Notes under the pieces: model-generated
The model's input: only the letters and a program-made list of their open reading frames with translations
What the model was told of the DNA's origin: nothing
Database searches by the model: none
DNA from: Candidatus Woesearchaeota archaeon
GTDB taxonomy: Archaea > Nanobdellota > Nanobdellia > Woesearchaeales > 0-14-0-80-44-23
DNA: 64,000 nt
Direction: 5' to 3'
Assembly (NCBI GenBank): GCA_038874135.1
Contig: JAVZCZ010000001.1
Coordinates: forward strand, 751,219-815,218
Shown here: one piece after another, positions 1-42,585 of the stretch
How the letters are laid out: each line of letters begins with the position of its first letter
Numbering within the stretch: the first letter of the stretch is position 1
Made by a program: the position numbers and the translations under genes

Positions 1-3000
1 TGCTCATACTCTTCTAACTACTTGGAAGTGCAGTGCTCAGATGAGCAAGCCTATGGCAATGCCTCTACATATTTTTACATATTTGAACTTCCATCCGTGA
101 ATACTTACGAACCGAACGATTCTGCAATAATAAACTCTTCCTCATTCCAATTTGAATATGAAATTCTGCCAGAATCGTCAGCATACTTAGTTAAAAACTG
201 CGCCCTTATATTAGATGGAACTTCCTGTAACTCTACTGATTTACCTCACAATGGAACAAACAGCATAAGCTGCCCGTTCAGTGAAGGATCTCACACTTGG
301 AAGGTGCTCTGCACACTCATAGGCTCAGGCCAGGAAACTATTGAAAGTCAAGAAAGAGGATTCTTTGCAGATTATAGTCCTCCAAATATAAACCTAATTA
401 ATCCAAACCAGCCCGCTTACAATTCAGATGTTCCCATTGAATTTAACATTACAGACTCTGCCTCTTCATCATTCAATTGCACAATATCCGGCATTCCAGC
501 ACCATTCAATCTCAGCTCACTTGTTTCCTACTCTTCTAAGCTTAACCTTCCAGTAGGAAAATATAATCTAACGATTTCCTGCTCAGATGCTGCTGGAAAT
601 TCTGCATATACTTGGCAAGAATTTGAACGAATAAATCTTTCAGTTTCAACTGACAAAAAATATTATATTCCTATGGAAAATGTGTTTATAACGCTGAACG
701 CTCCTCCTTCCCAAACAAATATCTCAGTTTCAAAAGGCAATTTCACACTGTCCAAAACAACAACTCCACCATATCCAATAGTCTACATCTTCACATCCTC
801 AAACGAGCCTGGAGATTACCTGGTGCAGGCATTTACAACATATAACAACATAACATTCACTGCCAACACCTCATTCTCAGTCAATATAACTAGAAACCTT
901 ACACTTTCAATATCAGCTAACACCACAACAGCTGAGCCCGGAGTAAGAATCCTATTCTATTCTAATGTTTCAGGAAACCTCACTCCTGTTACATACTTGT
1001 GGGACTTTAATAATGATAACCTTCCCGAAAGCAGCCTTCCAAATACCGAATACTCTTTCTCACAGCCTGGAAGATACCTCGTAACTTTAAAAGTGAACGA
1101 CTCATATTCCTCCGCCTCAGCTTCAATAAATATAACAGTGCTCTCCAGAGCAAATTTGAGCATTACAGTTCTTAACAGGCTTGGAGAACCTCTCGCTGGA
1201 GCAAACATCACGCTAGGCAACACATCTGCCATAACCAACTCCTCTGGAGCAGCAGTCATGCAGAATCTGCTTCAAGGCACATACCCTATAAATGTAACAG
1301 CCACAAATTACAATTCGTATTTCAACACAGTGGACATTTCCTCTAACAAAAACATAACAATATATCTACAAGAGCTCACAGAAGAGCCGGAAATCCTAAT
1401 AACAGAACCAACAGATGGTGCTACAATAACATCCCTTCCAATTACAATAAGGTTCAAAGCAAATTTATCATATCCTACAAACTGCACACTATACAAAAAT
1501 GAACAACAATCCTGGTGGGAACAGCTTTCTCAGATGGCTGTTACAAACAACACTGAAAATACCTTGTCAGTAGCCAATCTCACGGACGGGCAAGTTCTTC
1601 TAAGAATCGTATGCACAGATGTATTCGGAAACAGTGGCACCCAACAGATTTCCCTTAACATCAGCACACTACCAAAAGAGCCGCAATATCCAGAACTAGA
1701 CCAGGCAGAAGAAGAGCTCTACACAAAACAGGAATACTACAACAGCATAGGACCAGCACAGCTTGAAGCAGCTCAACTATTAGGTATACCTGATATGCTC
1801 TCAGATGCTCAGAACCGATTAACACTCGCCAGGAGGGATCTCTCAGACCTCTCATATTCAAAAAAGAGCCCGGAGGAAAAAGAAGCAAGAAAGAGTGAAA
1901 TAATATCTGACGCCGTTTCACGAATCAATGCAATTCCAGATTCAATACAGGTGCTATCTTCTTATGAACAGATACACTATCCAACTCAGCAAGAGCTGGA
2001 AAAGGTGGCAGCTCCCTTCATCTCAGCTAATTCTCTGAAGATAGACCAGCGGACATTCCTAAGAGCAAACTCTCCACTTATTGAGCTAATAACAATAAAT
2101 ACAAAAGCGTTTTCAATAGTGCTAAATTATAACGGGGAGAGCCGAGAAGTGTCTGTAATAAAGCACTCTGTACAGCTCAGCCAACAGCTTAACGAATCAG
2201 CAATCTCAAACCTGATGTTAATACTCAATATTCCAAAACAGATAGCTGACTCAGCAGCAGGAATCACATTTATGGACAGGTATGGACAAAAAGTAGTCAA
2301 AGATGATCCAATCTTTTCACTTCCTGTTACAAGCGAAATAGTTTACCAAATAAACAAGAGCATTGATGCAAATTCTGCTTCTGAGATATCACTCCTCTTA
2401 GTAAGCAAGAGTGCTTCAGTTTCAATACCAGGCATATCGGGACTGGCAGTTTCACAGACAAGGTATTCCATCTGGCCTTTCAATCTCATTGGAGGAAAAA
2501 TTGGCTCCAGTTTAGCTATTCAAATAGTAATACTTGTAGTGCTTCTTACCATATACTTAGTATACACCCTTCAGCCGGAAATAATAAGCAGATCAGCAGA
2601 TGCACTAGGAAATCATATCAAAAATCTCAGACCTCGCTCGGAAAATAGGATGAAGCAAATAGTCCATGCTGAGAAGTCAATTCCCACAACACTACAGAAC
2701 AATTTAGCTAGCATGCCGCAGCAACAAACATACTCACCCATTCAACAACAAGTAGTTCCCATAGGGCCTGGAATGCAGCATTCTTACATTGCTTACAGAA
2801 TGCAACGGGCTCTTCAGTTGGCAGAGCAGAACAACTATGAGGAAGCTTCAGCCGCATATTATGAATTAAAATTCCTTTATAACACGCTCAGCTCTCACGA
2901 AAAATCCCTACTTTATCCGCAATTATTAAACCTGGGACACAAGCTTAACATTTCCTATATCAGACAGTTAGTTTCAGAAGCAAAGTTAAAGGTTAATTCA

Positions 3001-3222
3001 GACTACCAAGAAGCCCTTGAACTTTATGATAAGATCTCCAAGGCATACTCACTGCTCCCTACAGAGTTCAAGTATGCAGTGTTCTCTGAATGTCTTGAGC
3101 TTCTAAACATTCTTGAAAGGGCAAGAAAAAACCAGAACAACTCTGAAAATCAAGCAGTAACCTTCAAAAAGAAAAAAAAGAGGTGCAGGTCAAAATCACA
3201 CGCCAAGGCGAGAAGGGCATAA
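1..3222 (+). CDS. Giant surface protein, 5'-partial, with tandem Ig-like repeats, a single TM helix near aa 830 and a cytoplasmic tail
   Basis: The ORF is open to the window start with no upstream stop in frame. It has repeated ~95-aa units with an NC[ST]L...W.V.C.D..GN Cys-pair motif, many N-x-S/T sequons, and a hydrophobic helix IQIVILVVLLTIYLVYTL followed by a ~230-aa tail. Confidence 0.6.
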   Translation, partial: CSYSSNYLEVQCSDEQAYGNASTYFYIFELPSVNTYEPNDSAIINSSSFQFEYEILPESSAYLVKNCALILDGTSCNSTDLPHNGTNSISCPFSEGSHTWKVLCTLIGSGQETIESQERGFFADYSPPNINLINPNQPAYNSDVPIEFNITDSASSSFNCTISGIPAPFNLSSLVSYSSKLNLPVGKYNLTISCSDAAGNSAYTWQEFERINLSVSTDKKYYIPMENVFITLNAPPSQTNISVSKGNFTLSKTTTPPYPIVYIFTSSNEPGDYLVQAFTTYNNITFTANTSFSVNITRNLTLSISANTTTAEPGVRILFYSNVSGNLTPVTYLWDFNNDNLPESSLPNTEYSFSQPGRYLVTLKVNDSYSSASASINITVLSRANLSITVLNRLGEPLAGANITLGNTSAITNSSGAAVMQNLLQGTYPINVTATNYNSYFNTVDISSNKNITIYLQELTEEPEILITEPTDGATITSLPITIRFKANLSYPTNCTLYKNEQQSWWEQLSQMAVTNNTENTLSVANLTDGQVLLRIVCTDVFGNSGTQQISLNISTLPKEPQYPELDQAEEELYTKQEYYNSIGPAQLEAAQLLGIPDMLSDAQNRLTLARRDLSDLSYSKKSPEEKEARKSEIISDAVSRINAIPDSIQVLSSYEQIHYPTQQELEKVAAPFISANSLKIDQRTFLRANSPLIELITINTKAFSIVLNYNGESREVSVIKHSVQLSQQLNESAISNLMLILNIPKQIADSAAGITFMDRYGQKVVKDDPIFSLPVTSEIVYQINKSIDANSASEISLLLVSKSASVSIPGISGLAVSQTRYSIWPFNLIGGKIGSSLAIQIVILVVLLTIYLVYTLQPEIISRSADALGNHIKNLRPRSENRMKQIVHAEKSIPTTLQNNLASMPQQQTYSPIQQQVVPIGPGMQHSYIAYRMQRALQLAEQNNYEEASAAYYELKFLYNTLSSHEKSLLYPQLLNLGHKLNISYIRQLVSEAKLKVNSDYQEALELYDKISKAYSLLPTEFKYAVFSECLELLNILERARKNQNNSENQAVTFKKKKKRCRSKSHAKARRA

Positions 3223-5564
3223 TTTGTGCTCTGCTTTTAGGAATTGTAACTATAATCTTAGGTAGTTATGCCTGCGCTTTGGAATTTTCACCATCTTCAA
3301 TTAACGAAGTGCTTTCTATTAACAAGTTTGTTCAGAAAAACATAACTTTGAAGAATGAACTCTCCTATCCGGTAAGGATTGCTCTGGTGCCCTCTTCTAA
3401 CATTAGCGATTTATTAGACATCACTCCAAATTCTATTGAAATCGGGGCAAGAGAGTCAAAGAATGTTCTGGTTACAATATACGGAAATGTTGATCCTATA
3501 AAATTTATTAATCGCTCGTATTACATCTTTAATGGCTTCATAAAGCTTGAAGGAGCTAACGCTCAAATACCTACGGACTTGATGGTCACTAATGGAACAA
3601 TAAACCTGCCCAGCAGCATGGTGCTTTCAGCATCGGCAGGTAAGGATTATTTCACTAAATCAGAAAATCTCTCTTTTATAATTGTTGTAACGAATCTTAT
3701 GACAGGCTCAAAACCAAATGTTACTCTTTTCTATTATTTCCTAATTGATAAAAACTCAGAAATTCCCGTTGGGAACGATTCCTTCATAATTACTACTTCA
3801 AAATCAGTTGTAAAGGAATTCATACCAATGTCTTCAATACCTGATGGCACCTATACTTTCAGGGTTGTAATGTCTTATGCAGATAAGAAGAGTGTTGCTG
3901 ATGTGCCCTTCAGGATATCAACCCCATTTATATTCAGAACATTCTTAGGTATAGCTGTATGGCAGTATATACTCGGAGTGATTGCCTTAATAATAATTGG
4001 CTTGTTAGTATACTGGCGAAGGAAGCGTGTTTTGGCTTCTCGTCGTTATGGTGTGAGTGTGGATTTGCGTAGTTTTCCTTCTTCTGGTAGGCTTGTGCGT
4101 TTGGGTAAGTTGGCGGAGTATGGGCGTGATTTTTGGTTTGATTTGGATGGTTTGACTACGCATTGTATTGTGGCTGGTGCTACTGGTGGTGGTAAGACTG
4201 TTGCTGCTCAGGTTTTGGTGGAGGAGGCTTTGAAGGCTGGTGTGGCTGTGGTTGTTTTTGATCCTACGGCTCAGTGGAGTGGTTTTTTGAGGCCTTGTTC
4301 TGATAAGGGTATGTTGTCTTTGTATTCGGGTTTTGGGTTGCGTCGTTCTGATGCTCGGGGTTTTCCGGGTAATGTGAGGCAGGTGTTGGATGCTCGTGAG
4401 GTTTTTGATGTTAGGCGTTTTATGCGTCCTGGTGAGATTGAGATTTTGAGTTTGAATAGGTTGAGGCCTGAGGAGATTGATGTTTTTGTGGCTAATACTG
4501 TTAGGAGCGTGTTTGATGCGGGTTTGGATGAGTGTCGTGAGTTGAGGTTGTTGTTGGTTTATGATGAGGTGCATAGGTTGTTGCCGCGTTTTGGCGGTTC
4601 TGGTGAGGGTTTTGTGCAGATTGAGAGGGCTTGTCGTGAGTTTAGGAAGTGGGGTGTTGGTGTTGTTTTGATTAGTCAGGTTTTGTCTGATTTTGTTGGT
4701 GAGATTAAGGCTAATATTAATACTGAGGTTCAGATGAGGACTCGTGATGAGGGCGATTTGGAGCGTATTCGTGTTAAGTATGGTGATGCTTATCTTAGGG
4801 GTCTTGTGAGGGCTAGTGTGGGTACTGGTATGTTTGAGAATCCCGGTTATAATGGTGGTCGTCCTTTTTTTGTTAGTTTTAGGCCTTTGTTGCATAGTGT
4901 GGTTCGTTTGTCTGATGCCGAGTTGGGTGAGTATAATAGGTTGAATGGGGTGTTGGATGATTTGGAGTTTTGGATTGGCGAGTTGGAGCGTTTGGGTGTG
5001 GACGTGTTTGATTTGAGGTTGGAGTTGAAGTTGGCTTGGGATAAGTTGAGGGTTGGGGGGTTTGGGATGGTGGATGTTTATGTTGAGGGTTTGAGGCCTC
5101 GCGTGTTGGGCGAGTTTGAGCGTTTGGGGAGGCCTGTTCCTAAGCGTGAGGTTAAACGCCTTTCAGATGAGGAGCTTGCAAAGCAGAGGAAGCTGGCTGA
5201 GCAGAGCCGTGCAGAGTTTATAAAAAAGATGGGCATTAAAGAGCAGCAGTCCAAGCAGGAGGAAAAGAAGGAAGAACACATCGTGCAGCCTTACACTTTT
5301 GATAATGGTGCAATGGTTTCGGAGCTTAAGGAGTTGAAAGACGCTATAGAACCTATGAGTGCTGACATCCTCAGAAGCGCGTTGAGTGGAAACAATAAGC
5401 TTTCTGATTGGATAAAGAATGAGCTTAAGAATGAGCAGCTTGCCTCTGAAATTGAGAAGGCGAAGACGAAAAAGGAGATTCTTGATGCAATAACTGCTGA
5501 ACTTGATAAAGCAGAAAAGAGCAGTGAGAAATCTGGAACTGATAAAGGCCAAAAGTCTAAGTAG
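3183..5564 (+). CDS. Membrane protein with TM, ~240-aa ectodomain, TM and a cytoplasmic FtsK/HerA/T4CP-like P-loop ATPase
   Basis: N-terminal TM helix, Ig-like ectodomain, second TM ending ...LVYWRRKR. Walker A is GATGGGKT, Walker B is LLLVYDEVH, followed by a K/E-rich tail. The ATPase part is identical to that of the 6094 gene. Confidence 0.7.
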   Translation: MQVKITRQGEKGIICALLLGIVTIILGSYACALEFSPSSINEVLSINKFVQKNITLKNELSYPVRIALVPSSNISDLLDITPNSIEIGARESKNVLVTIYGNVDPIKFINRSYYIFNGFIKLEGANAQIPTDLMVTNGTINLPSSMVLSASAGKDYFTKSENLSFIIVVTNLMTGSKPNVTLFYYFLIDKNSEIPVGNDSFIITTSKSVVKEFIPMSSIPDGTYTFRVVMSYADKKSVADVPFRISTPFIFRTFLGIAVWQYILGVIALIIIGLLVYWRRKRVLASRRYGVSVDLRSFPSSGRLVRLGKLAEYGRDFWFDLDGLTTHCIVAGATGGGKTVAAQVLVEEALKAGVAVVVFDPTAQWSGFLRPCSDKGMLSLYSGFGLRRSDARGFPGNVRQVLDAREVFDVRRFMRPGEIEILSLNRLRPEEIDVFVANTVRSVFDAGLDECRELRLLLVYDEVHRLLPRFGGSGEGFVQIERACREFRKWGVGVVLISQVLSDFVGEIKANINTEVQMRTRDEGDLERIRVKYGDAYLRGLVRASVGTGMFENPGYNGGRPFFVSFRPLLHSVVRLSDAELGEYNRLNGVLDDLEFWIGELERLGVDVFDLRLELKLAWDKLRVGGFGMVDVYVEGLRPRVLGEFERLGRPVPKREVKRLSDEELAKQRKLAEQSRAEFIKKMGIKEQQSKQEEKKEEHIVQPYTFDNGAMVSELKELKDAIEPMSADILRSALSGNNKLSDWIKNELKNEQLASEIEKAKTKKEILDAITAELDKAEKSSEKSGTDKGQKSK
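4021..5176. repeat. Copy 1 of an exact 1,156-bp GT-rich cassette encoding the ATPase domain
   Basis: Nucleotide-identical to 8201-9356 at a consistent offset of 4180. Composition is roughly T 40 / G 36 / A 12 / C 12, unlike the flanks. Confidence 0.9.
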
Positions 5565-5612
5565 ATTTCTTATACCTTAACCAACAATGTGGTATTTATA
5601 AACTTAGATTAC

Positions 5613-5708
5613 TTAGTATGCATTTATACACATACACTATTTGTGTCACATTTAAAAATTAGTATATAAAATGAAAATATTTATATATCAATATACATAT
5701 TTAGTATG
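5613..5708 (+). promoter_or_regulatory. Three direct repeats TTAGTAT(G/A) in the AT-rich promoter upstream of the RHH-ATPase-adhesin operon
   Basis: Copies at 5613-5620, 5659-5668 and 5701-5708, spaced 46 and 42 bp apart. The last is 33 bp upstream of the first RHH ATG. Confidence 0.35.
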
Positions 5709-5740
5709 AGTTTGTATTCAAAGACCTTGAAAAGGCTTTT

Positions 5741-5941
5741 TTGGGACCCGAAATGCGCAGTACGCCTGAGAAGCATGGCTCAAAGAGAATAACCATAACC
5801 ATAAGCAAGGACCTTTTAGACTTCTTAGATTTAGCTGTGGAGAACAGGCTGTTCGCAAGCAGAAGTCATGCACTTGAAGTCTTAGTAAGGCGCAGGATGG
5901 AGTTTGAGAATGAAGCAAAGAATTACAATTACATTGGATAG
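5741..5941 (+). CDS. Ribbon-helix-helix (CopG/Arc/MetJ-like) DNA-binding protein
   Basis: 66 aa with a KRITITISKDLLDFLD...NRLFASRSHALEVLV pattern typical of the RHH beta-strand plus two helices. It sits directly upstream of the ATPase operon. Confidence 0.55.
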   Translation: MGPEMRSTPEKHGSKRITITISKDLLDFLDLAVENRLFASRSHALEVLVRRRMEFENEAKNYNYIG

Positions 5942-6101
5942 TGAATGCCTGGCATGGGTTGATGAAAAGGTAAAGAATAGAAGCTTTGCTAATCGGAGCC
6001 ACGGCTTTGAATTTTTAATAGCGCGATTCAAGGAGCGCCAAGAACTTCAGAATCTTCTCAACTCGCGAAATTCAAAGGAGGAAGACTTAAAACATGAATA
6101 A
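5904..6101 (+). CDS. Ribbon-helix-helix DNA-binding protein, paralogue of the 5741 gene
   Basis: 65 aa with QRITITLDSECLAWVD...NRSFANRSHGFEFLIARF. It overlaps both the upstream RHH gene and the downstream ATPase gene start. Confidence 0.55.
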   Translation: MRMKQRITITLDSECLAWVDEKVKNRSFANRSHGFEFLIARFKERQELQNLLNSRNSKEEDLKHE

Positions 6102-9100
6102 AAATCCTACCTTCAGGATACTGGAACGGGACAGGCAGCTGGAAAGGAGAAGACAGCAGCTGTACATCCTATTAGGCATCTTAGGAGTTTTACTAGCAGT
6201 TGGTGTTATACTTCTGATAAGAATGTTCATAGGATACGCAGTTCTGGAAAGCAGGGCTGGCACAATAACACAACTTAATATACAGCTCAGATACTCAACA
6301 CACATATGGGCTGGATTTTACGGATTGGCATTCCGCGTTCCCGGATACACTGAGCAGCAGTCTGCAGTTGCAGTCGGCGGCACAGTCTTCTTGCAGCACT
6401 TAGTATTTGACTGCTTAAAAACTACAGACGGCAACATTCCTGAGGTATATGCCAGTACTTCAAGAAACATTGACTGGAATTCACTCCAGCCAGCAACTCC
6501 AGACTTGATTGACAGCTACCTACAAGTAGATCCTTCAGATATAACCTCTGCTTCAAACACATTTACAGAAACAATGTCAATACTCTTAGGAGACAGAGAA
6601 ATCACAAATATTGCTGCAACGCACACCAAAAAGTTCGGAGTTCCGGACAGCACGGACTTTGATATAGGCTTCTTAAAAGATTCGTTGGGAAATCTCGTAT
6701 TTGTAACCCATGTAACTCCAACTTATACCAAAGGATTTAACAACCAAACTATAAACTACCAAATGCTCCTTCCAGTACAAGCAGGAACAGCTCCAGTATA
6801 CTACTTCTTCTCAGACCCATATGACGAGTGCCAAGCAGGGCTTGAAGCTCTCAAAAATGCTACCATATTCGGAAGAGCCATAGACAATGCAACAGGCCTT
6901 CCACTTGAAAATGTTACAGTTAATCTTCATACTGCTACAGTTCTTACCAACTCTACAGGAGACTATTACATAGCAATATTTAACGGCACCTACACCCTAG
7001 TAGCTTTCAAGCCGGGATATTACACCTTTGTTGCAACAAACATCACTCTCCCAGCTGACAATCTGTCTACACCTCAATCTGAAAATATTGTCGAATTTAA
7101 TATATCCCTCATTCCCAACCCTGGAAACCCAACTGGACTCGGAAACCTAACTGGCACTGTAACTGATAAAGACTTCGGAATACCCCTCTATAATGTAACA
7201 GTGTATGTAAACGGCAGAATCGCTAAGACAAACATTACAGGCCAATACCTACTTGAACTGCCAGCAGGAAATCATTCTCTTATAGCAATGAAGGAAAACT
7301 ACAGAACATACTACACTCCAAATGTAACTATACTGCCTGGAAACACCACTGAATTTAATTTCAGTATGGAATATGCAGAGCCAGAAATAAAAGAAACTCC
7401 TGGATATCCGCTAAATACCTTCGTTTCCAACCTACTCAAACAGGCAGTGCAGAGGCCTCAAATAATACTCACTCATAAGATTGATACAAAAGAGATATTT
7501 GAAACATTAAAAGTTGGCTCATATGTCCAGCGCTCATTCAATATAACGAGTTACAGGCCTGCCGAGTCCAAAGTTGAGTTTGAAGTCATAGGAAGTGCTG
7601 CACAGCTGGTAAAGGTTGACAAGAGCAGCTCAATAATACCTCCAAGGGGTGCAGAAAACTTCACCCTTACAATTCTAGCCAATGTGCCTCCAGGCATATA
7701 TACCGGAACATTCCTAATCAAAGGAGACCTTGAAGACAGAATCCCGATAAAGATAGTTGTTTATGAGAAGGATAGACTTCCAATAGAGGCTCTTCTCCTA
7801 GAAGTAGTGCCAATAAAAAAGATAATCAGCCCAGGAGAACTATTTGAATATAAGGTCAGCATGACAAACCTGCTGAGGGACACCCCATACAACATCACCC
7901 TTTCATACAATATCACCTCGCGCTCTTCAAATCTTACTATTCCCGTTGAAGAAGAGACGAGACTCTTGGAAACTCAGCTTTCCTACCTTAAGTATTACAA
8001 GCTTCCCAAAGACCTGCCAGAAGGAGAATACTTCCTTGAAACTAGAGCGGAATTCTTAGAACTATCAACAAACACAAAATCGCTATTCATAGTTAAGAAG
8101 CCAATTTACATGTATGCATTATTCGGAATACTTCCCCTCTGGCAGCTTTTCATAATAATAGTTTTCACCTCCCTCATGACCTTCGCAGGATTAATGTATC
8201 GGAAGCGTGTTTTGGCTTCTCGTCGTTATGGTGTGAGTGTGGATTTGCGTAGTTTTCCTTCTTCTGGTAGGCTTGTGCGTTTGGGTAAGTTGGCGGAGTA
8301 TGGGCGTGATTTTTGGTTTGATTTGGATGGTTTGACTACGCATTGTATTGTGGCTGGTGCTACTGGTGGTGGTAAGACTGTTGCTGCTCAGGTTTTGGTG
8401 GAGGAGGCTTTGAAGGCTGGTGTGGCTGTGGTTGTTTTTGATCCTACGGCTCAGTGGAGTGGTTTTTTGAGGCCTTGTTCTGATAAGGGTATGTTGTCTT
8501 TGTATTCGGGTTTTGGGTTGCGTCGTTCTGATGCTCGGGGTTTTCCGGGTAATGTGAGGCAGGTGTTGGATGCTCGTGAGGTTTTTGATGTTAGGCGTTT
8601 TATGCGTCCTGGTGAGATTGAGATTTTGAGTTTGAATAGGTTGAGGCCTGAGGAGATTGATGTTTTTGTGGCTAATACTGTTAGGAGCGTGTTTGATGCG
8701 GGTTTGGATGAGTGTCGTGAGTTGAGGTTGTTGTTGGTTTATGATGAGGTGCATAGGTTGTTGCCGCGTTTTGGCGGTTCTGGTGAGGGTTTTGTGCAGA
8801 TTGAGAGGGCTTGTCGTGAGTTTAGGAAGTGGGGTGTTGGTGTTGTTTTGATTAGTCAGGTTTTGTCTGATTTTGTTGGTGAGATTAAGGCTAATATTAA
8901 TACTGAGGTTCAGATGAGGACTCGTGATGAGGGCGATTTGGAGCGTATTCGTGTTAAGTATGGTGATGCTTATCTTAGGGGTCTTGTGAGGGCTAGTGTG
9001 GGTACTGGTATGTTTGAGAATCCCGGTTATAATGGTGGTCGTCCTTTTTTTGTTAGTTTTAGGCCTTTGTTGCATAGTGTGGTTCGTTTGTCTGATGCCG

Positions 9101-9636
9101 AGTTGGGTGAGTATAATAGGTTGAATGGGGTGTTGGATGATTTGGAGTTTTGGATTGGCGAGTTGGAGCGTTTGGGTGTGGACGTGTTTGATTTGAGGTT
9201 GGAGTTGAAGTTGGCTTGGGATAAGTTGAGGGTTGGGGGGTTTGGGATGGTGGATGTTTATGTTGAGGGTTTGAGGCCTCGCGTGTTGGGCGAGTTTGAG
9301 CGTTTGGGGAGGCCTGTTCCTAAGCGTGAGGTTAAACGCCTTTCAGATGAGGAGCTGCAGAAGGAAAAGGAGATTGCTATGCAGGAACATGAGAAAGCAA
9401 AACAGCAGGAAGCAGGACAAACTTCACAAAATTCAGATTCCAAGACAGAAACTTCCCAAATTCAAAACACAAAAGTTGAAGAGCAGCCCAGCCAAAATGA
9501 AAAGGCCGAGAACCAAGAGAATGCAAAATCCTCAAATGAAAATAAAATTAAAAGAGTAAGGGAGGGTAAAAAGCAGAGGATGAGGAAATCAGCAAGTTCG
9601 GAAAAAAATAATAAAAAAAGAGGTGCTAAAAAATGA
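6094..9636 (+). CDS. Membrane protein with TM, ~640-aa ectodomain (CarboxypepD_reg-like / Ig-like domains), TM and a cytoplasmic FtsK/HerA/T4CP-like ATPase
   Basis: N-terminal TM helix LYILLGILGVLLAVGVILLI. Two domains resemble TGLPLENVTV...GDYYIA...KPGYY. Second TM, then an ATPase identical to aa 279-664 of the 3183 gene. Confidence 0.7.
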   Translation: MNKNPTFRILERDRQLERRRQQLYILLGILGVLLAVGVILLIRMFIGYAVLESRAGTITQLNIQLRYSTHIWAGFYGLAFRVPGYTEQQSAVAVGGTVFLQHLVFDCLKTTDGNIPEVYASTSRNIDWNSLQPATPDLIDSYLQVDPSDITSASNTFTETMSILLGDREITNIAATHTKKFGVPDSTDFDIGFLKDSLGNLVFVTHVTPTYTKGFNNQTINYQMLLPVQAGTAPVYYFFSDPYDECQAGLEALKNATIFGRAIDNATGLPLENVTVNLHTATVLTNSTGDYYIAIFNGTYTLVAFKPGYYTFVATNITLPADNLSTPQSENIVEFNISLIPNPGNPTGLGNLTGTVTDKDFGIPLYNVTVYVNGRIAKTNITGQYLLELPAGNHSLIAMKENYRTYYTPNVTILPGNTTEFNFSMEYAEPEIKETPGYPLNTFVSNLLKQAVQRPQIILTHKIDTKEIFETLKVGSYVQRSFNITSYRPAESKVEFEVIGSAAQLVKVDKSSSIIPPRGAENFTLTILANVPPGIYTGTFLIKGDLEDRIPIKIVVYEKDRLPIEALLLEVVPIKKIISPGELFEYKVSMTNLLRDTPYNITLSYNITSRSSNLTIPVEEETRLLETQLSYLKYYKLPKDLPEGEYFLETRAEFLELSTNTKSLFIVKKPIYMYALFGILPLWQLFIIIVFTSLMTFAGLMYRKRVLASRRYGVSVDLRSFPSSGRLVRLGKLAEYGRDFWFDLDGLTTHCIVAGATGGGKTVAAQVLVEEALKAGVAVVVFDPTAQWSGFLRPCSDKGMLSLYSGFGLRRSDARGFPGNVRQVLDAREVFDVRRFMRPGEIEILSLNRLRPEEIDVFVANTVRSVFDAGLDECRELRLLLVYDEVHRLLPRFGGSGEGFVQIERACREFRKWGVGVVLISQVLSDFVGEIKANINTEVQMRTRDEGDLERIRVKYGDAYLRGLVRASVGTGMFENPGYNGGRPFFVSFRPLLHSVVRLSDAELGEYNRLNGVLDDLEFWIGELERLGVDVFDLRLELKLAWDKLRVGGFGMVDVYVEGLRPRVLGEFERLGRPVPKREVKRLSDEELQKEKEIAMQEHEKAKQQEAGQTSQNSDSKTETSQIQNTKVEEQPSQNEKAENQENAKSSNENKIKRVREGKKQRMRKSASSEKNNKKRGAKK
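8201..9356. repeat. Copy 2 of the exact 1,156-bp GT-rich ATPase cassette
   Basis: Identical to 4021-5176. The antisense ORFs 4005-4895 and 8191-9075 are also identical. Confidence 0.9.
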
Positions 9637-10457
9637 AGTCAAAAAAATCAGTTAAGTATAGAGCGAGAGTTCACAATAAGGCTAACTCAAGCAAGAAAGA
9701 TTTGAGAAAAAAGAAGGTTCGCATTGAGAGAAAAAATAGCACTAAAACAATTAGTAAAGAAACATCACCTAAAAAATCCAAAGCTTACTTAAAAAAGCGA
9801 TTTGGCAAGATTGATAACAGAGTTATTAAAAATAAAAATAATAAAGTAAAACCAGGAGCTTTAAAGCACAGAAAAAAAGAGAAGAAGCAGAATGTTCAAA
9901 AAAGAAGAAAAGCAATGCAAAAAAAGCCAGCGCCTGAAAACGCAGCCGCAGCAACCAACCAAGTACAGACAAATACGACTTCAACAGCTCAGCAGGCAAA
10001 TTCTCAAATTGAAACACATTCAGATGTGGAAGCGCTTCAAAAAGAATACTCAGATATCAACAGCTATCTGGTTCAGCGAAGAAAAGCGGGAGTTGACACC
10101 TTCATACAGGAACTGAAACTTTTTTCAATACCGTCAAAAATTCAGCTTTTAAAGGCAGAATACTCAAAAGATTATGCTGACAAGATTAGAGTTCAACTTA
10201 ATGAGATTAGAGAAGAGTTAGAAAAAGCAGAACCTCAACCGACCCCCCTTGACCTTCCTAAAGTTCAGCCGAACCAGCCGAATCCATTCTCAGAGCAACA
10301 GCTCACAAGTCAGAATAATAATCATCCCTTAACGCAGGATGCAGAAAACTATTCAAAAGAACTAGCTGAGAAGCGCCTTTCAAATAAAATAAAAAATTCT
10401 CTGAGAAATGCTTCCAAAAAAGTTATGTCCATATTCAAAAAAGGAGGTGGAAATTAG
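9633..10457 (+). CDS. Lys-rich low-complexity protein
   Basis: 274 aa, K/N/Q-rich, with an ATGA start/stop overlap with the upstream gene. No recognisable domain. Confidence 0.4.
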   Translation: MKSKKSVKYRARVHNKANSSKKDLRKKKVRIERKNSTKTISKETSPKKSKAYLKKRFGKIDNRVIKNKNNKVKPGALKHRKKEKKQNVQKRRKAMQKKPAPENAAAATNQVQTNTTSTAQQANSQIETHSDVEALQKEYSDINSYLVQRRKAGVDTFIQELKLFSIPSKIQLLKAEYSKDYADKIRVQLNEIREELEKAEPQPTPLDLPKVQPNQPNPFSEQQLTSQNNNHPLTQDAENYSKELAEKRLSNKIKNSLRNASKKVMSIFKKGGGN

Positions 10458-11615: not shown

Positions 11616-14600
11616 ATAGCTCCAAATTTTTCAAACTAATAATTTTAGGGTTTATAATAGTGGTAGGTCTCCTAAGCCAGTCAAAAGCAGACAGCATCCA
11701 AGCAGTATATGGCAATACTCAACTCATACTCACAGACAAGCCGCAGTACACTTTGGGAGAAAGTGTAAAGATAAACATACTAATCCCAACACAACTGCTT
11801 TCAGGAATGAATGTTGAAATAGATACCCCTGCTAGCAGATACCAACTTCTTGATTCAAATCTTTCAGAAGTATACTTCACTCCACAGCAAGAGGGAAACT
11901 ATACTATTAAAATATCTTCAGCAGCTGGGAATTTAATATCATCAACTTCTTTTTTAGTACTAAGAAAATCTGAAGTTGAAATTCCCTCATCAGATAGCAC
12001 CAGCCCCAAATTGTCTGCAAAAAACTGGAAGGGAAATTATCAAAAAATACTAAGACAGGAATACCTACCTGCCAACAAGAAGCTTTCAATAGAATTCTCA
12101 GAACTTTCAATACAGAAGATTGATTTTTACAATGTTTCAAATCCGAATGGAGAACTGAAAATAGAAGATGTGCCTCTATCTTATGTTGAAAACTTTTCAG
12201 GAAGAGCAGCGCGCTCATTTGCAATAGACCCAACTTTATTAGAATTTACTTATGCTGAAATTTACTTTACTGCAACTGCCAACGAGCTGTGGAAGTGCCG
12301 CGAATACGACTTCTCAACTAGAAGCTGCGCGGGAAGATATGTAAAAATAATGGACACCATTCCGGGCAGGCAGTATATCTTACACCTCACCAAAGAGGAT
12401 CCTCTCTACACAGAAGTATGGAACAATATAACCTGCACCTGCCAGAATACAGGCCCAAATAACGGCTGGGCATACTGCGAGGTATTCTGTCCGGTCAACA
12501 TTCCAATACCAACAGACGCTTTAGATGGATTCATTCAGATACTAGGCTATAATGTCACCATCACTACATCCTACCCGGCAGGCGGGTACATCACGCCTAA
12601 TTCTGGAATGCACTACGGCTTCTTTGATAGGGACCAGCTGAAAAGCAACGGAAACGAATCCCTAATAGGCTATGTGGCTTATGATGGCCCCGGAACAACC
12701 ACTCAGCTCATATACAACACCAGCATGGCACCGTCTGGAGCATATGCATTTAACAGGGCAAACTGCCCGACTTGGACCTCAGGATACTGCACCTGGTATG
12801 TATTTCTCAACTCAACTGCAAAGAGCAGCAAGGTTAAAAGGCCTGTGACTGTTAATATAACTCTTAATAGCATAAACTGGACTTGGAATTATACAACCCC
12901 TGCGCCTTCAAACATTACAATAAACCTTACAAGTCCAGCAGACAATACTGCCCTCGGATTTAGAAATGTGAATTTTTCCTATATTCCCATTTCAAGTTCT
13001 CCAGTTTCAAACTGCAGCCTTTTTATAAACATTACAGGTAGTTGGAATGCAGTTGCCACAAGCTACTCAATACAAAATAATTCTGTCAACAGTATAAATT
13101 ATACTCTTTCTAACGATGGCGAATACCTCTGGAATATCAGGTGTTATGCTGGAGACATCAGCAGTTTTGCACTATACAACAGAACTCTAATAGTTGATAC
13201 CGCACCCCCTTCAGTCACACTTCTTTCTCCTAACAATAACTCATTTTCTAACACATCTATAATCTCTTTCATTTACAATGTGAGTGACAACTTTAACATT
13301 GCTAACTGCTCATTAATACTGGACAATGTTCTAGTTGCAACTTCATACGCAGTTACTAAATATGTCCCGCAGAATATTACCTACGCGTTATCTAATGGCG
13401 TCCACAACTGGAGCATAACTTGTTTTGACTTTGCAGGCAATTTTAACATTTCCGAAAGTAGGATCATAAATATATCCGCAGTACCTACCATCTGGGACAG
13501 AAGGTGGTATGAAACTTCAACATCAGATTATACCTCTACAGCAAACATTTCTCTCGCAAATTTAAGGGACTCAACAGAAAATTCCATATCCGTTTCAGTT
13601 CCAGTTTCAACATCTTACACCCTTGTAGATGCGATTTCTCCATACATTGGAAGCAACGGGGCATTCGTTCCCAAAGGCACAAATGTATCTTTCAGCGGAG
13701 AATTCTCTACCAGCCCAAATGCAAAGGGAGTTATAAGCTGGTTCTTATACCAGACTGAGGGTTCAACAAAAAACCTTCTCTGTAATTACGGAAATGGCGG
13801 CTCGCTAGGCGCACCCATCTCATCAACAACAACTGCAAGCTGCACTATACAAAATGACACTCTAATGCTCCCAACAAATAGATTACAACTTATTATAATC
13901 TACTATAACAATTTCAAAAATTTAGTGTCTGTAACCCACTATTGGGATGGCACTAGGCTCTCGTTCGTTGAATTTTCAAACTTTACTACCTTAGGAACAT
14001 TAAGCGTTGACCTCTCCTATCCAGACACGGATATAACAGTGGGCCAGAACGAACTGTTCAATATGAGCTGCACAGTTAACTGCTCAGGAGGAAGCTGTCT
14101 TAACACACTCGTCTATGCACAGTATAACACGAGCTCAACGGCATTCACCAACATAGGAAGCTCCGGAAATCTCATTCTTAACACTGGAGAGACAAATCCC
14201 CATTCTCTCGGGAATATCAACCAGAGCTACACTACAACATTCTTAATAAAAGGAAACCTTGCATCAACAAACAACATAAGATGCGTAGCAGTTTCAAACT
14301 ATTCAAACGCTACAGGCCAGATTATAAGAAGGGTAGTTGTGGGGGACACTACGCCTCCAACAGTAAGTCTTGGAAATCCAGCAAACTTTTCTTGGCTGAA
14401 GAGTAAAACAGTAACAATCTATTACACGCCCTCAGACAACAGCGGAATTACTAACTGTTCAATATACTTGAATGATATTTTGAATTATACTCTTAATTCA
14501 GTTCCGAACGGGATTGAGCAGAACTTCACATTCCATAATCTTTCAGACGGACTTTACAATTGGACTGTAGCATGTACTGACAATTCGGCACTAACTACCA

Positions 14601-17600
14601 GGGCAGCTGAAAAATGGTTCTATATAGACACACAGAATCCCTCAGTAGAATTGCACCAGCCGGAAAACTTCATAGTTCTAGGAAGCAGCCTTGTGTTGTT
14701 CAACTTCACTGCATATGACGAAATGGCTTTCAACCTATCATGTAACCTGACAGCTGATAATATAATCAGAATTTCCGGCATAAACTCTCTAAACAGTACA
14801 CCTACAATAGTTAATTACACCCTTTCTATGGGGCAGCACTACTGGAATGTCACCTGTAGAGACCTTGCAGGAAACATTAACACGAGCGAGACTAGAACAT
14901 TTAATATAACAAACACTCCTCCTGAAGTTACCCTCATCTCCCCTCCTAACAACTACTGGGATAGAATAGGCAACATAACATTCATATTTAATGCCACAGA
15001 CACAGGCCTAATTTCAAACTGCTCACTAATAATAAATGGCCAGCTGAACCAGACTAAAAATTCAACTTTCTTAACTAACGGCATAAACAACTTTACTATT
15101 CTAAATATGGAATCGGGAGTTTATCTTTGGGAAGTAAACTGTACTGATGAGGGAAACCTGAGCACAATAGCAGGACCTTTCACGCTAAATGTTGATAAGA
15201 GCGTACCTTCTGTTCAGCTCGTATTCCCATCAAACTACTACAACTCCTCAGCTTCCTCTATTGTTCTGCAATTCATAACTACAGATGCTCATTCAGCAAA
15301 CCTCTCCTGCAACTTAACAATTGATGGCATTCTAAATTCAACAGACATAATAGCCCAAAATAATAGTTTAGTCTCACAGCCCATAACCTTCTATGATGGA
15401 ATTCACAATTGGAGTGTCTCCTGCTCTGATCTTGCTGGAAACCTGAATTCTACAAACACCTGGTATTTCAACATTTCAGAAAAACCTTCAGTATCGCTAA
15501 GCAGTCCTGCACCTAACGCCTGGACTAATGGTAATGTCACTTTCACATTTACAGCGTCTGACAATGACGGGCTTTACAACTGCTCTTTATTAATAAATGG
15601 AGCAGTCTATCAAACAAAGAATTCATCGCAACTTACAAATGGCGGACAGAACAACTTCACTGTAACAAATTTGCTTGAAGGAATAAACCAGCAGTGGACA
15701 GTAATCTGCTTTGATTTGGGAATATACAAGAACTTCTACTCACCATCTACAAGAATATTCCATGTGGATAAAACGCCTCCAGCAATAACTCTTAACTACC
15801 CTGCTGATTCAGCTCAGATAAAACAGAAGAATGTCAGCTTTAATTTCAGCGCCTCAGATAACTTCGCTTCTAACCTCTATTGCAACCTGTCCATAAACGG
15901 CCAGATTAACACTTCTGAAATAGCTGTTCAGTCAGGAAGTTCAGTTATCGTGAATGTTTCAGGATTTCCTAACGGTTTATACTACTGGAATGTCTCCTGT
16001 AGGGATTATGCTTACAATGTGAACTGGAGCGAGACAAATTCTTTTAATGTTTCAGTTCCTCCAGAGGTGTTTTTAGAATACCCCCTTGAAGGGCAGTGGG
16101 ACAATTCTGAGAATGTAACATTTTATTACTTAGTAACATCAAATGCAGAGTTACAGTCATGTTCTCTCATAATTAACGGGCAGTTAAATCAGACTGACAA
16201 TTCTCCAGTTAGTTCAGCATACAACAATTTTACCATTTTCCTAATGCCTGAAGGCTATTACACTTGGATGGTAAACTGCACTGATTCATATTGGCTAACC
16301 GGTTCTTCAAATTTGAGGAACCTCACCATTGACAGACAAGCTCCTTGGATAGTGCTAAATTCTCCTTCTAATTCTTCAATTGTTGACTCTAACTATGTAA
16401 CATTTAACTGGACTGCTTTTGACATGATGGCAGATAATATAAGCTGTGACCTATACGTAGATGATTATTTAAGAGAATCAGAAATATATTCTAAAAATGG
16501 AACACCTACCACTAGAACATACATATACTCTGACGGCACCTACTATTGGAATGTTTCATGTCGCGACCCTGCCTATAACATTAATTGGAGCCAAACTTAT
16601 AATTTCACTGTTGAGGCACCTCCAAATGTCACTCTCATAAGTCCTTCTAACTATAACTGGAGCACCGCTTATAGTATAACTTTTGCTTACTTACCTCAAG
16701 ACCCAATAGGGATAAGACAATGCACACTCTACTTTGATGGAAGCCCTAATCAGACTGATTACGACATAGAAGCTAACCAGCTGAATTATTTCACTATAAA
16801 TCCTATAAGTGAGGGAGTTCATACTTGGAGTGTTAACTGCACTGATTCAGATTGGAATACTTACATGCCGCCAGCCTTTACTCTTTATATTGACCGCACC
16901 CCGCCAACAATTGTTATAGAATCTCCTGTCAACCTGTCTGTTTTTTCAATTCCAGATGTAACCTTCAACTTTACTGCGATTGACATGTTATCAGATAATA
17001 TTTCGTGCAAAATAACTATAAATGGTAATTTGAACAGAACTATAACAGTACAGAATGATACTCCTTACAATTTCACGATTGTAAAAATGTCAGATAATAT
17101 CTATTATTGGAATGTGTCCTGCTCAGATTTAGCCGGAAATGCAAATGCTAGCAACACCATGCAGTTTACTGTAAGCGCTATTCCTTCAATAATTCCCATA
17201 TCGCCTGCCAACTTAAGTTGGAGTGAAGTATCACAGATAACATTTTACTTTAATGCAACCGACAACGATGGGCTTTCTAATTGCACTTTACTAATTAATG
17301 GTGTAGCAAATCAGACAAAATCTTCAGGTTTAATAAATGGTGGCATAAACAATATCACTTCTACTCTTACTGAAGGAGAATATGATTGGAGTATCGCTTG
17401 TACAGATTCGGGCATATTCTATAATCTCAACTTGTCCGCTCCTCAAAAGATTTTTGTTGATCTAAATTCCCCGCTGATTGTTCTTTACGCCCCTCTCAGC
17501 GGTAGCATTACTGAAAATAATTCTCCAGTTCTAAATTTTACTGCTTCAGACACGATGTACCCAATTATGTATTGCAACATTACTCTTGACGGAAAATTGA

Positions 17601-26655: not shown

Positions 26656-27150
26656 ATGCCAATTTTAAAGAAAGAGCAACCAACTGCATTTCAGGAGCCA
26701 CCTAAAGAAGTGCCGCCCTTGGCGCGGGAGATAATTGAAAGGAGCAAGATAGCTGGGCATACCGAACTTCCTCAGGAACTTCCACGAATTGCCGAATTGG
26801 TTGAAAGCCCAAAACAGGAATATCCAATACCACAAGAGTCAGCTCACGCTTCCGACGACATAAAAGAAGTGAAAGAACGCCTTGAACGAATAGAATCCTT
26901 GCTCAGAACTGCTGTTCCGGGAAAATATCTCATACTGAGAGATGGGAAAGTACTTAAGAACATTGCCGATTTGAGAAGCGCTTTAGCCACGATGAGTTCG
27001 GAAACATTCAATTTGCATGTCAACTTTGAGAGGAATGACTTTGCAAATTGGGTTAGGAATGTCTTCTTGGAAAAAGAGCTTGCTGATAAGTTGGATGGAG
27101 CCACGAGCAGGGCTCAGATGATTAGAATTTTAAACGAATATTTTGACTGA
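26656..27150 (+). CDS. Hypothetical soluble protein with a C-terminal HVNFERND domain
   Basis: 164 aa. The last ~70 aa are similar to the cytoplasmic C-terminus of the 35335-37869 protein (F.HVNFERND.A.W...LA..L...M..IL). Confidence 0.5.
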   Translation: MPILKKEQPTAFQEPPKEVPPLAREIIERSKIAGHTELPQELPRIAELVESPKQEYPIPQESAHASDDIKEVKERLERIESLLRTAVPGKYLILRDGKVLKNIADLRSALATMSSETFNLHVNFERNDFANWVRNVFLEKELADKLDGATSRAQMIRILNEYFD

Positions 27151-42279: not shown

Positions 42280-42585
42280 TTACTCATATGCGGTTAACTT
42301 CTTGTTCTTCGCCCTTCTAAGCTTTTCTCTTATTAGGTCAATCTTCTGGCTGCAAGTTGGGCATAGCATTATTATGTTTGAGAACTCATCTTTTCCCCCG
42401 CTGGCAATAGGAATTAGATGAAAGAAGTGGCACTCCTTCAGCCTTACGGGAGTTTTGCAGTTCGCGCATCTTAAGGTTATTTTCTGCTCGTGTCCACACT
42501 CAGAACATCTTATAATACTATTCTCCAGAAACTCTAAGATTACTGAGCGCTTCACCTGCTTGCTCATACTTAGATATACTTGCAC
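42280..42585 (-). CDS. HNH endonuclease-domain protein
   Basis: CxxC...CxxC zinc pairs with an HF.H.IP...GG......N...LC..C motif. Confidence 0.55.
   Translation of the reverse strand: MQVYLSMSKQVKRSVILEFLENSIIRCSECGHEQKITLRCANCKTPVRLKECHFFHLIPIASGGKDEFSNIIMLCPTCSQKIDLIREKLRRAKNKKLTAYE

Follow-up and report, generated by a model that had tools for sequence, protein, structure and literature searches.

The window analysed here, a stretch of 64,000 nucleotides from a Candidatus Woesearchaeota archaeon (contig JAVZCZ010000001.1, positions 751,219 to 815,218), contains two neighbouring genes for membrane ATPases that share a nucleotide-identical segment (cassette A) and two genes for surface proteins that share another one (cassette B). 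Within both cassettes, nearly all codons end in G or T. This G/T-only synonymous code is found throughout a clade of Woesearchaeota, has been kept over long times and is confined to gene segments that evolve in concert; it appears to be a new form of concerted evolution, behind which there is possibly a new molecular drive.

Two membrane proteins with an identical ATPase segment

Cassette A occupies positions 4021-5176 (copy 1) and 8201-9356 (copy 2), both on the forward strand, and the two copies agree in every one of their 1,156 bases. Perfect identity breaks off with the very next base on either side, and the adjoining 300-nt flanks, which are 28% and 34% identical, are unrelated. Both copies are in frame with their hosts, an open reading frame (ORF) of 793 amino acids (ORF1, 3183-5564) and one of 1,180 amino acids (ORF2, 6094-9636), and all eight junctions of the two cassette pairs are in frame as well. 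As described from the ORF list, the translation and Pfam matches, the first 279 amino acids of ORF1 comprise a short ectodomain rich in N-glycosylation sites and a transmembrane (TM) helix; copy 1 follows, and the protein ends in a Lys/Glu-rich tail with the motif TFDNG..V.EL. In ORF2, amino acids 1-702 form a long ectodomain, in which CarboxypepD_reg/PEGA domains are present, and a TM helix; they are followed by copy 2, which has the same composition as copy 1, and by a Lys/Gln/Glu-rich tail. The cassette starts directly behind the hydrophobic helix, with RKRVLASRRYGV after ..YWR in ORF1 and with RKRV.. after ..LMY in ORF2, and ends with ..KRLSDEEL. An earlier note on this DNA had claimed the perfect identity, the shared reading frame, the Walker A (GATGGGKT, 4176-4199 in copy 1) and Walker B (LLLVYDEVH, 4548-4574) motifs, the onset at a TM helix, the KRLSDEEL end and the unrelated tails, all of which were borne out by the comparison of the copies and by their translations.

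The copies are direct repeats, which lie 4,180 bp apart. The segment between them (5177-8200) comprises the ORF1 tail, a 530-nt spacer and the ORF2 ectodomain, and recombination between the copies would delete it, leaving an intact gene that combines the N-terminal part of ORF1, the ATPase domain and the ORF2 tail. An ORF1-type ectodomain, followed by the cassette, an ORF2-type tail and the downstream genes, is present at locus L008 (2313-5530, reverse complement) of the HHBFW-2 metagenome-assembled genome (MAG) and at locus L014 (3274-5244, reverse complement) of a Yellowstone metagenome. These junctions may represent the expected recombination product or a path switch of the assembler.

The ORF1 tail (5270-5400, ..QPYTFDNGAMVSELKELKDAIEPMSADIL..) contains the motif TFDNG.MVSS..EL...LP.....F..HV, which is also found in the tails of many homologs from DPANN archaea, e.g., P0009, P0012 and P0018. 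DUF5752 (PF19027) is annotated on some homologs, and a 164-amino-acid ORF elsewhere in the window (26656-27150) is a weak DUF5752 match.

Nature of the ATPase domain

To judge from its sequence, cassette A encodes a P-loop ATPase of the HerA/FtsK superfamily (DUF87/HerA_C type). The domain is complete, it exceeds the Pfam cut-offs for DUF87 (37.8 bits; cut-off, 23.2) and HerA_C (37.4 bits; cut-off, 22), and its best relative in the PDB is HerA (4d2i, E = 1.6e-7). All 50 columns that are invariant in 32 homologs are kept, as are 107 of the 112 columns conserved at 90% or above. Since none of the invariant ATPase residues has been lost, the protein is under purifying selection, and it looks functional. 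The earlier note had described the domain as FtsK/HerA/T4CP-like. The assignment to the HerA/FtsK superfamily stands, but membership in the coupling proteins (T4CP) does not: the protein stays below the Pfam cut-offs for TrwB_AAD_bind (18.7 versus 20.5) and T4SS-DNA_transf (16.3 versus 20.1), the NCBIfam TraD/TraC models yield 18-30 bits with cut-offs of 366-647, and the NCBIfam equivalogs HerA, CedD, TraD and TraC are all far below their cut-offs. The P-loop with Walker A and B motifs and the DUF87/HerA_C matches above cut-off are shared with other membrane-anchored ATPases of the superfamily, such as HerA (4d2i), the Ced DNA-import ATPase and the conjugative coupling proteins; unlike in these, the domain is fused behind an N-terminal ectodomain and a TM helix, and no equivalog model is passed.

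Codons ending in G or T

The coding bias was expressed as K3, the fraction of G and T at wobble positions, and compared with 11,286 control segments of 100 codons from the window. K3 amounts to 0.976 for cassette A (376 codons) and to 0.982 for cassette B, whereas the controls have a mean of 0.49 ± 0.08 and a maximum of 0.70, and the 33 other ORFs of the window a mean of 0.50 ± 0.06. In cassette A, the third positions consist of 0.5% A, 2.6% C, 40.9% G and 56.0% T, and the segment has a GC skew of +0.5 to +0.67 and an AT skew of -0.4 to -0.57. The sharp compositional switch at the boundaries, which the earlier note had pointed out, is thus far stronger than stated there. The G/T-coded core of copy 1 extends from 4021 to ~5150; the last ~26 nt (AAA CGC CTT TCA GAT GAG GAG CTT) are identical in both copies yet normally coded.

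In the codon table of both cassettes, two-fold pyrimidine codons all end in T and two-fold purine codons all end in G, and arginine is divided between CGT and AGG. Of 50 leucine codons, 45 are TTG; the bias hence includes a synonymous first position as well. It extends to the protein: compared with 32 homologs, cassette A is enriched in glycine (+6.8 standard deviations), arginine (+6.1), valine (+4.2) and tryptophan (+3.2) and depleted of lysine (-4.7), isoleucine (-4.6) and glutamine (-3.2), and the ratio of GT-codon to AC-codon residues is 3.37, versus 0.96 ± 0.12 (maximum, 1.31) in 120 homologs. Of 126 positions at which the homolog consensus has K, I, N, T or Q, 82 are replaced in cassette A; conserved columns keep these residues (0.76), whereas loose columns exchange them (0.52). 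Replacements relative to the homolog consensus are, on the whole, mainly K>R (12 times) and I>V (8 times). The pattern is that of a directional pressure, which has acted on the coding strand for a long time and was filtered by purifying selection, and not as that of a back-translated or foreign gene. An origin by back-translation or synthesis was also rejected on the grounds of the shifted amino acid composition, the ordinary protein evolution between lineages and the independent environmental samples in which the code is found.

It is improbable that the code results from selection at the level of RNA or translation, in which case codons of the NNK type (ending in G or T) would be used because they prevent, in every frame, all-A/C trinucleotides such as ACA, CCA and AAA and could thereby escape a sequence-specific endoribonuclease, or because they are decoded by G34 and C34 tRNAs only. 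The third-position bias is absolute in several lineages and has been kept over long divergence, and single exceptions are rare in the core, which speaks for such selection. However, the first positions of leucine codons and the choice of amino acids are biased, too, so the pressure is compositional; moreover, the flanks of the same mRNAs are normally coded, and the cytoplasmic ATPase domain and the extracellular repeat encoded by cassette B have only their duplication in common. In archaea, one G34 tRNA serves both NNC and NNU codons. Translational selection was rejected, since it leaves the total loss of NNC codons unexplained when both codons share a tRNA.

Both strands of the cassettes are predicted to be almost structure-free as single-stranded DNA (ssDNA; -3 to -6 versus -10 to -13 kcal/mol per 150 nt). 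Four long antisense ORFs (4005-4895, 8191-9075, 19867-20799 and 30460-31284) were rejected as genes, as their translations are of low complexity (T/N/Q/K/P/R); they exist because NNK coding gives MNN antisense codons, which are never stops.

A second pair in surface proteins

A scan of the 64 kb for G/T-rich stretches yielded exactly four, namely the two ATPase copies and the stretches 19919-20669 and 30509-31248. The latter two contain cassette B, i.e., positions 19969-20624 (copy 1) and 30550-31205 (copy 2), which are identical over 656 bp and lie 10.6 kb apart on the forward strand. Copy 1 is in frame in a giant surface protein of 2,612 amino acids with Big_7, Big_13 and CARDB domains (18649-26487), and copy 2 in a surface protein of 752 amino acids without a Pfam match (30160-32418). 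The segment encodes ~4.4 units of a 50-amino-acid (150-nt) extracellular repeat (..VDTTAGT..SVSAFNSSAFVFGWYDQ.., repeat family D1). Outside the cassette, the hosts are divergent paralogs, which are 38-43% identical and normally coded. The occurrence of a second G/T-coded pair in surface proteins indicates that the code is a property of duplicated, homogenised segments and not of the ATPase as such.

Relatives of the cassette in other Woesearchaeota

An exact 51-mer of the cassette had no match in GTDB representatives, JGI metagenomes and IMG/VR. A degenerate DNA pattern, which encodes ISQVLSDFVGEIKANI with G/T-ending codons only, served as the working query and retrieved ten loci on eight contigs, two from GTDB MAGs and six from JGI metagenomes. 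Such a simple pattern thus suffices to pull orthologous cassettes from both large sequence collections. The carriers are the Woesearchaeota MAG of isolate Kamch4342 (two matches on one 492-kb contig), a MAG from the HeHuaBianFuWa hot spring and the six JGI contigs, one of which is from Yellowstone; all of them are Woesearchaeota with the same synteny. HHBFW is a hot spring sampled in a survey of Tibet and Tengchong (PMC11304991), and Ga0078972 is a Yellowstone metagenome (PMC8986864).

Compared with the cassette of the window, the orthologs have 74-94% identity in protein and 78-91% in DNA. A protein search with the cassette returned homologs of at most 64% identity (61% for the top-scoring one), all of which are normally composed; the close G/T-coded relatives were not among them, although JGI and GTDB contain contigs that encode them at 74-94% identity. 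Protein searches based on a word index can therefore miss this clade, for which the DNA pattern was needed. The homologous loci L001-L003 show no G/T bias.

K3 is 0.98-1.00 in the eight related lineages, and in three of them all 378 wobble positions are free of A and C. Where wobble positions differ synonymously between lineages, the exchange is nearly always G↔T (32 of 41 cases for the window and its closest relative, L010, and 24 of 24 for L010 and L008), and at shared four-fold sites such exchanges come close to the number expected at saturation when the deeper clades are compared. Among the differences at first positions, A↔C is overrepresented, mostly in arginine codons (AGG↔CGT). This dominance of G↔T and A↔C differences implies that changes within a class (keto or amino) are tolerated and changes across classes are not. 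The ratio of G to T at wobble positions follows genomic GC content, being 31:69 at 30-35% GC and ~40:59 at 40-46% GC, as would be expected if G↔T changes are neutral. A low-GC subclade has reached one codon per amino acid, e.g., GTT in 52 of 52, GGT in 43 of 44 and TTG in 45 of 45 codons; two codons are used for arginine and serine only, and alanine, glycine and threonine have a single stray codon each.

Apart from the window lineage, exceptions to the G/T rule are almost confined to the edges of the cassettes. Nine codons that end in C, four of which are GGC, are peculiar to the window lineage; they are scattered over the 3' 60% of its cassette core (4506-5109, and at the same offsets in 8201-9356). 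L010 has none, which suggests that the rule has been relaxed in the window species.

Concerted evolution of ancient paralogs

On the sequence evidence, the two membrane ATPase genes are an ancient duplication. A distant Woesearchaeote (GCA_016180195.1) has the same gene order, and its two ATPase domains are 48.6% identical, normally coded and without DNA similarity. The opposition drawn in the earlier note, which had argued for a recent event rather than ancient paralogy, is therefore a false one. The cassette is 56.5% identical to the short-type and 47.2% identical to the long-type domain of this relative, which suggests that the domain of the long paralog was ancestrally replaced by the short type before homologous conversion set in.

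The G/T-rich core is identical between the paralogs in each of the four lineages in which both copies are visible. In Kamch4342, the copies match over ~1,240 nt, the only two mismatches being located at the extreme 5' edge, and are ~80% identical to the window; those of Ga0272448 are 100% identical over the ~770 nt of visible G/T-rich core, with all 16 mismatches lying beyond the G/T-rich part; and those of Ga0210017/Ga0210018 are identical in the visible ends of the core. Since these lineages differ from each other, with 78-91% DNA identity, the identity of the copies within each of them is the current state of a long-running homogenisation. Thus, paralogs are closer than orthologs in several lineages, and the tract ends where homology ends. 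Its boundaries differ by lineage, the Kamch4342 tract starting 13 codons earlier, within the TM helix, and G/T-richness follows identity; in one lineage, G/T coding begins ~18 nt ahead of identity. The sequence comparisons show that the shared segments evolve in concert and that the surface-protein pair does so independently, and gene conversion is the best explanation for the identity of the copies. Of the earlier proposal of a very recent gene conversion or cassette insertion, conversion is retained and insertion dropped, as no viral, phage or plasmid copy was found and the coding is vertically inherited, with flanks that have diverged to 30-65%. The coding has remained stable while other proteins of the gene cluster have diverged to 30-50% identity.

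It is highly unlikely that the cassettes are of foreign origin, i.e., that they were taken from a virus or plasmid in which one strand is extremely skewed towards G/T, such as an ssDNA replicon, and recombined into both host genes. The sharp compositional contrast to the flanks and the mere 61% identity of the best database protein would be in line with such a source. However, no match was found in IMG/VR (with exact, degenerate and protein patterns) or in phage and plasmid collections, and the identities of the cassette between lineages (94, 86 and 74%) broadly track those of the ORF2 ectodomain (82, 65 and 47%), indicating vertical descent; the ORF1 ectodomain is 49 and 30% identical. A foreign source would also leave the continued identity of the copies within each diverged lineage unexplained. 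The compositional switch is not a mark of foreign DNA; it consists of a near-total exclusion of A and C at synonymous sites of the coding strand.

A third copy, for which the earlier note had called for a search, did not appear in the Kamch4342 genome, from which a whole-collection scan retrieved exactly two copies. This bears on the idea that a master copy of RNA or ssDNA, which has been edited (A-to-I, C-to-U) or miscopied by a biased polymerase or reverse transcriptase, is written back into both targets in the manner of a diversity-generating retroelement. Such overwriting, which would explain the sense-strand specificity, the identity of both targets and the polarity of the 3' margins, has quite a small chance of being correct: the Kamch4342 genome contains exactly two matches to the cassette pattern, both on the 492-kb contig, an mRNA template would also recode the flanks of its own gene, which are normal, and the copies are identical instead of differing at adenines. 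Diversity-generating retroelements do occur in DPANN archaea. Among the ORFs of at least 100 amino acids in the window, none was found to contain a reverse transcriptase or deaminase domain, and a diversity-generating retroelement proper was rejected, since these ORFs lack a reverse transcriptase, the copies are identical and the differences between lineages are G↔T, not A-to-N.

Independent assemblies and strains

The exact 1,180-amino-acid ORF2 protein is encoded on NCBI contigs of 909,956 and 495,644 bp, and the exact ORF1 protein on three NCBI MAG contigs; members of the cluster carry seven locus-tag prefixes in NCBI MAGs of the Candidatus Woesearchaeota species. One assembly, GCA_038731275.1, differs from the window at 44 of 19,636 positions and thus represents another strain. 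Several contigs and proteins of the same species stop 41-43 amino acids into the cassettes, as is expected for a true repeat in an assembly graph, while other assemblies cross the repeat. According to these independent assemblies, the repeat itself is real. De Bruijn-graph assemblers, however, thread one collapsed repeat edge twice, so that exact identity is inseparable from an identity of ~99% or more in assemblies alone, and the exact identity may partly reflect such a collapse.

An artefact of assembly or data, such as a chimeric join, a collapsed repeat or a synthetic sequence, is extremely unlikely to account for the cassettes as a whole. A collapsed edge that is threaded twice would produce exact identity as well as seemingly concerted single nucleotide polymorphisms (SNPs), and a code with one codon per amino acid looks designed; however, the same architecture and code are present in seven or more NCBI MAG assemblies of the species, in two other MAGs and in six JGI contigs from different projects, with 9-22% divergence, coherent protein evolution and all eight ends in frame.

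Three strain variants, at offsets 518 and 677 of cassette A and 321 of cassette B, were found in both copies, and a fourth variant of the core is a L>R exchange (CTG>CGG). All four core variants are G↔T, as compared to 6 of 64 SNPs outside (Fisher p = 2.6e-4). When polarised with L010 as outgroup, one variant is T>G and one G>T.

The cassettes break short-read assemblies of DPANN genomes, and their odd composition, together with a presumably doubled coverage, could mislead binning and detectors of horizontal transfer.

Possible mechanisms

There is about an even chance that recurrent gene conversion, combined with a deamination drive which turns amino into keto bases on the coding strand, explains the identical G/T-coded pairs. 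The ATPase domain of the long paralog would first have been replaced by that of the short paralog, and homologous conversion would have become possible only afterwards. Recurrent intrachromosomal conversion between the direct repeats would then keep the copies identical, the tract being limited by the end of homology, and strand-exchange intermediates would repeatedly expose the coding strand as ssDNA in a thermophile with a reduced repair set. On the exposed strand, adenine would be turned into hypoxanthine, which is read as G, and cytosine into uracil, which is read as T, and conversion would spread these changes into both copies. Changes within a class (G↔T, A↔C) would be neutral and keto-to-amino changes would not persist. 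A G/T-rich, structure-free strand is also the substrate that recombinases of the RecA family prefer, and the process could thereby reinforce itself. This reading is favoured because the change from amino to keto is the exact chemistry of deamination, because the traceable carriers come from hot springs and because G/T coding is exclusively tied to homogenised tracts. Mitochondrial DNA is shaped by the same pair of changes on its single-stranded strand.

Several points speak against deamination during conversion. The evidence that ties the G/T drive to conversion is correlative. At the 3' edge, 14-37 nt are identical between the copies but use a normal, A-rich code, so a position within the last conversion tract is not sufficient for G/T-richness. 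Hydrolytic deamination of A is far slower than that of C, although no base is more strongly depleted at wobble positions than A; the reading hence requires either that the opposite process is efficiently repaired in duplex DNA, or that an enzyme is involved. Because the four copies are all found on the same strand of a single cluster, coding strand, direction of replication and invading strand are indistinguishable, and we know of no mechanism that limits ssDNA exposure to one strand during gene conversion. Furthermore, the nine C-ending codons are fixed in the core of the window lineage, where the drive would have to be leaky, and the exact identity and the concerted strain SNPs could stem from assemblers that thread a collapsed repeat twice.

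Transcription-associated mutagenesis of R-loops or the non-template strand was rejected as the sole cause, since the flanks of the same ORFs, which are presumably co-transcribed, are normal; R-loops are also disfavoured by the U-rich sense strand in the low-GC clade.

The main rival holds that the cassettes are a selected recombination substrate, i.e., that the G/T wobble is an adaptation or a selfish pairing drive, which renders the coding strand an optimal, structure-free and 3-nt-periodic substrate for RadA, the RecA homolog of archaea. The benefit would lie in identical ATPase domains (e.g., for mixed hexamers) or in homology arms, which could be used to swap, delete or duplicate the fast-evolving ectodomain segments between them. 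While this rival is judged unlikely, a number of observations agree with it: G/T-rich tracts coincide with homogenised tracts in every lineage, both ssDNA strands are nearly structure-free, variation is limited to keto↔keto and amino↔amino changes, which resembles a filter on base class more than a spectrum of mutations, the most divergent parts of the cluster are those flanked by the repeats, and deletion-type junctions are seen in L008 and L014. It also draws on the preference of RecA and Rad51 for GT-rich DNA with a 3-nt periodicity, RecA being aligned to the 3-nt-periodic TGG pattern (PMC5587095); references listed in PMC5948810 likewise concern this preference. However, RadA would have to share this preference, selection on recombinability would be a second-order effect that must reach down to individual synonymous sites, and ssDNA structure would probably matter little at the temperature of a hot spring. 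Taken by itself, the rival also gives no account of the amino acid composition that was dragged along (82 of the 126 K/I/N/T/Q positions).

In a broader form, it can tentatively be proposed, though the proposal is on balance doubtful, that thermophilic DPANN archaea have a hitherto undescribed, locus-specific process by which DNA is written or filtered according to base class and which thereby keeps segments keto-only at all free sites of one strand while copying between paralogs. The process could be a deamination or repair pathway coupled to recombination or a recombinase-driven "keto-biased gene conversion", its outcome would be a code of ~22 codons, and the repeats may in addition act as programmed recombination arms, by which surface-exposed ectodomains of the cluster are fused, split or exchanged. 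If the coupling is real, the cassettes are a natural experiment that ties homologous recombination to base composition at unprecedented strength, and several questions become testable: whether strand-exchange intermediates are biased or mutagenic in thermophiles with minimal repair, how recombinase preference shapes genes, and where the limits of synonymous drive lie.

Comparison with known systems

A literature search for the accessions, for a "keto skew" phenomenon and for the DPANN ATPase cluster yielded no relevant description. Concerted evolution of paralogs by gene conversion is known from bacterial tufA/tufB and rRNA operons, among others, and long-lasting cases in prokaryotes have been surveyed (PMC6053082). 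The cassettes resemble these in that copies within a genome are closer than orthologs, the tract ends with homology and the process persists across speciation. They differ from them in that only an internal domain of two otherwise unrelated proteins is affected and in the near-absolute, strand-specific exclusion of A and C. Biased gene conversion, as far as it is known, favours GC and treats both strands alike, whereas the cassettes are keto-biased on one strand; GC-biased gene conversion was rejected, since the exclusion of C is as strong as that of A and the bias is confined to one strand.

Vertebrate mitochondrial DNA shows the same directional changes on its single-stranded strand (C>T, A>G), which are likewise mainly synonymous and leak into residues. 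There, the asymmetry is genome-wide, graded by exposure and amounts to a wobble bias of roughly 80-85%, whereas here only four segments, each 0.66-1.16 kb long, are affected, with values of 98-100%. Tracy and Kowalczykowski in 1996, Tracy et al. in 1997 and Biet et al. in 1999 reportedly described GT-rich "islands of preferred DNA pairing" as well as the GT preference of RecA and Rad51. The cassettes share with such islands a G/T-rich coding strand of 3-nt periodicity, which is tied to homologous recombination and has little ssDNA structure. The islands of Escherichia coli, however, are attributed to genome-wide codon usage; since the flanks of the same genes use normal codons here, the cassettes are not a by-product of codon usage.

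In the vlsE/vls system of Borrelia and the pilE/pilS system of Neisseria, gene conversion generates surface variation, the expressed copy being diversified from many silent, differing donors. Common features are the segmental, in-frame conversion between nearby copies, the surface-associated loci and the strong skew of G over C on the coding strand. The cassettes, in contrast, exist as two copies in full-length ORFs that are kept identical and conserved, and one pair encodes a cytoplasmic ATPase domain. An antigenic-variation cassette system of the vls/pilS type was rejected, as each cassette has two identical copies, both in full-length ORFs, and silent, differing donors are lacking.

Neighbouring genes and minor observations

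The ATPase genes are part of a cluster with the order PKD protein, ATPase 1, ATPase 2, a protein of 274 amino acids, a coiled-coil protein of 385 amino acids and giant immunoglobulin (Ig)-like proteins, and this order is also found at loci L001, L009, L013, L016 and L012. Its first gene (22-3222, forward strand) encodes a surface protein of 1,066 amino acids with PKD and CarboxypepD_reg domains according to Pfam. The conserved DPANN cluster (22-26487 in the window; L001, L004, L009, L012, L013 and L016) also contains a small RHH protein. The giant Ig-like/CARDB proteins of the cluster have 2,300-2,600 amino acids and are rich in N-glycosylation sequons. A role of the cluster as a cell-surface or host-contact apparatus is plausible.

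Just 3' of the Lys/Gln/Glu-rich ORF2 tail, the window has its sole strong G/T-poor stretch (9729-10069), in which G+T is below 32% and the AT skew is ~+0.5; it lies in the 5' part of the 274-amino-acid ORF (9633-10457). A protein of 2,346 amino acids contains a divergent repeat (13404-17170), whose units are 60-72% identical over a 68-nt core and which has four successive spacings of 561-576 nt (14838-17170) after a gap of 1,434 nt; it probably represents tandem Ig-like domains (W-N-V-S-C..D..GN motif). In contrast to the cassettes, this repeat is normally coded and not homogenised. A stand-alone HNH endonuclease of 101 amino acids (42280-42585, reverse strand) adjoins the topoisomerase I gene (42592-44766).

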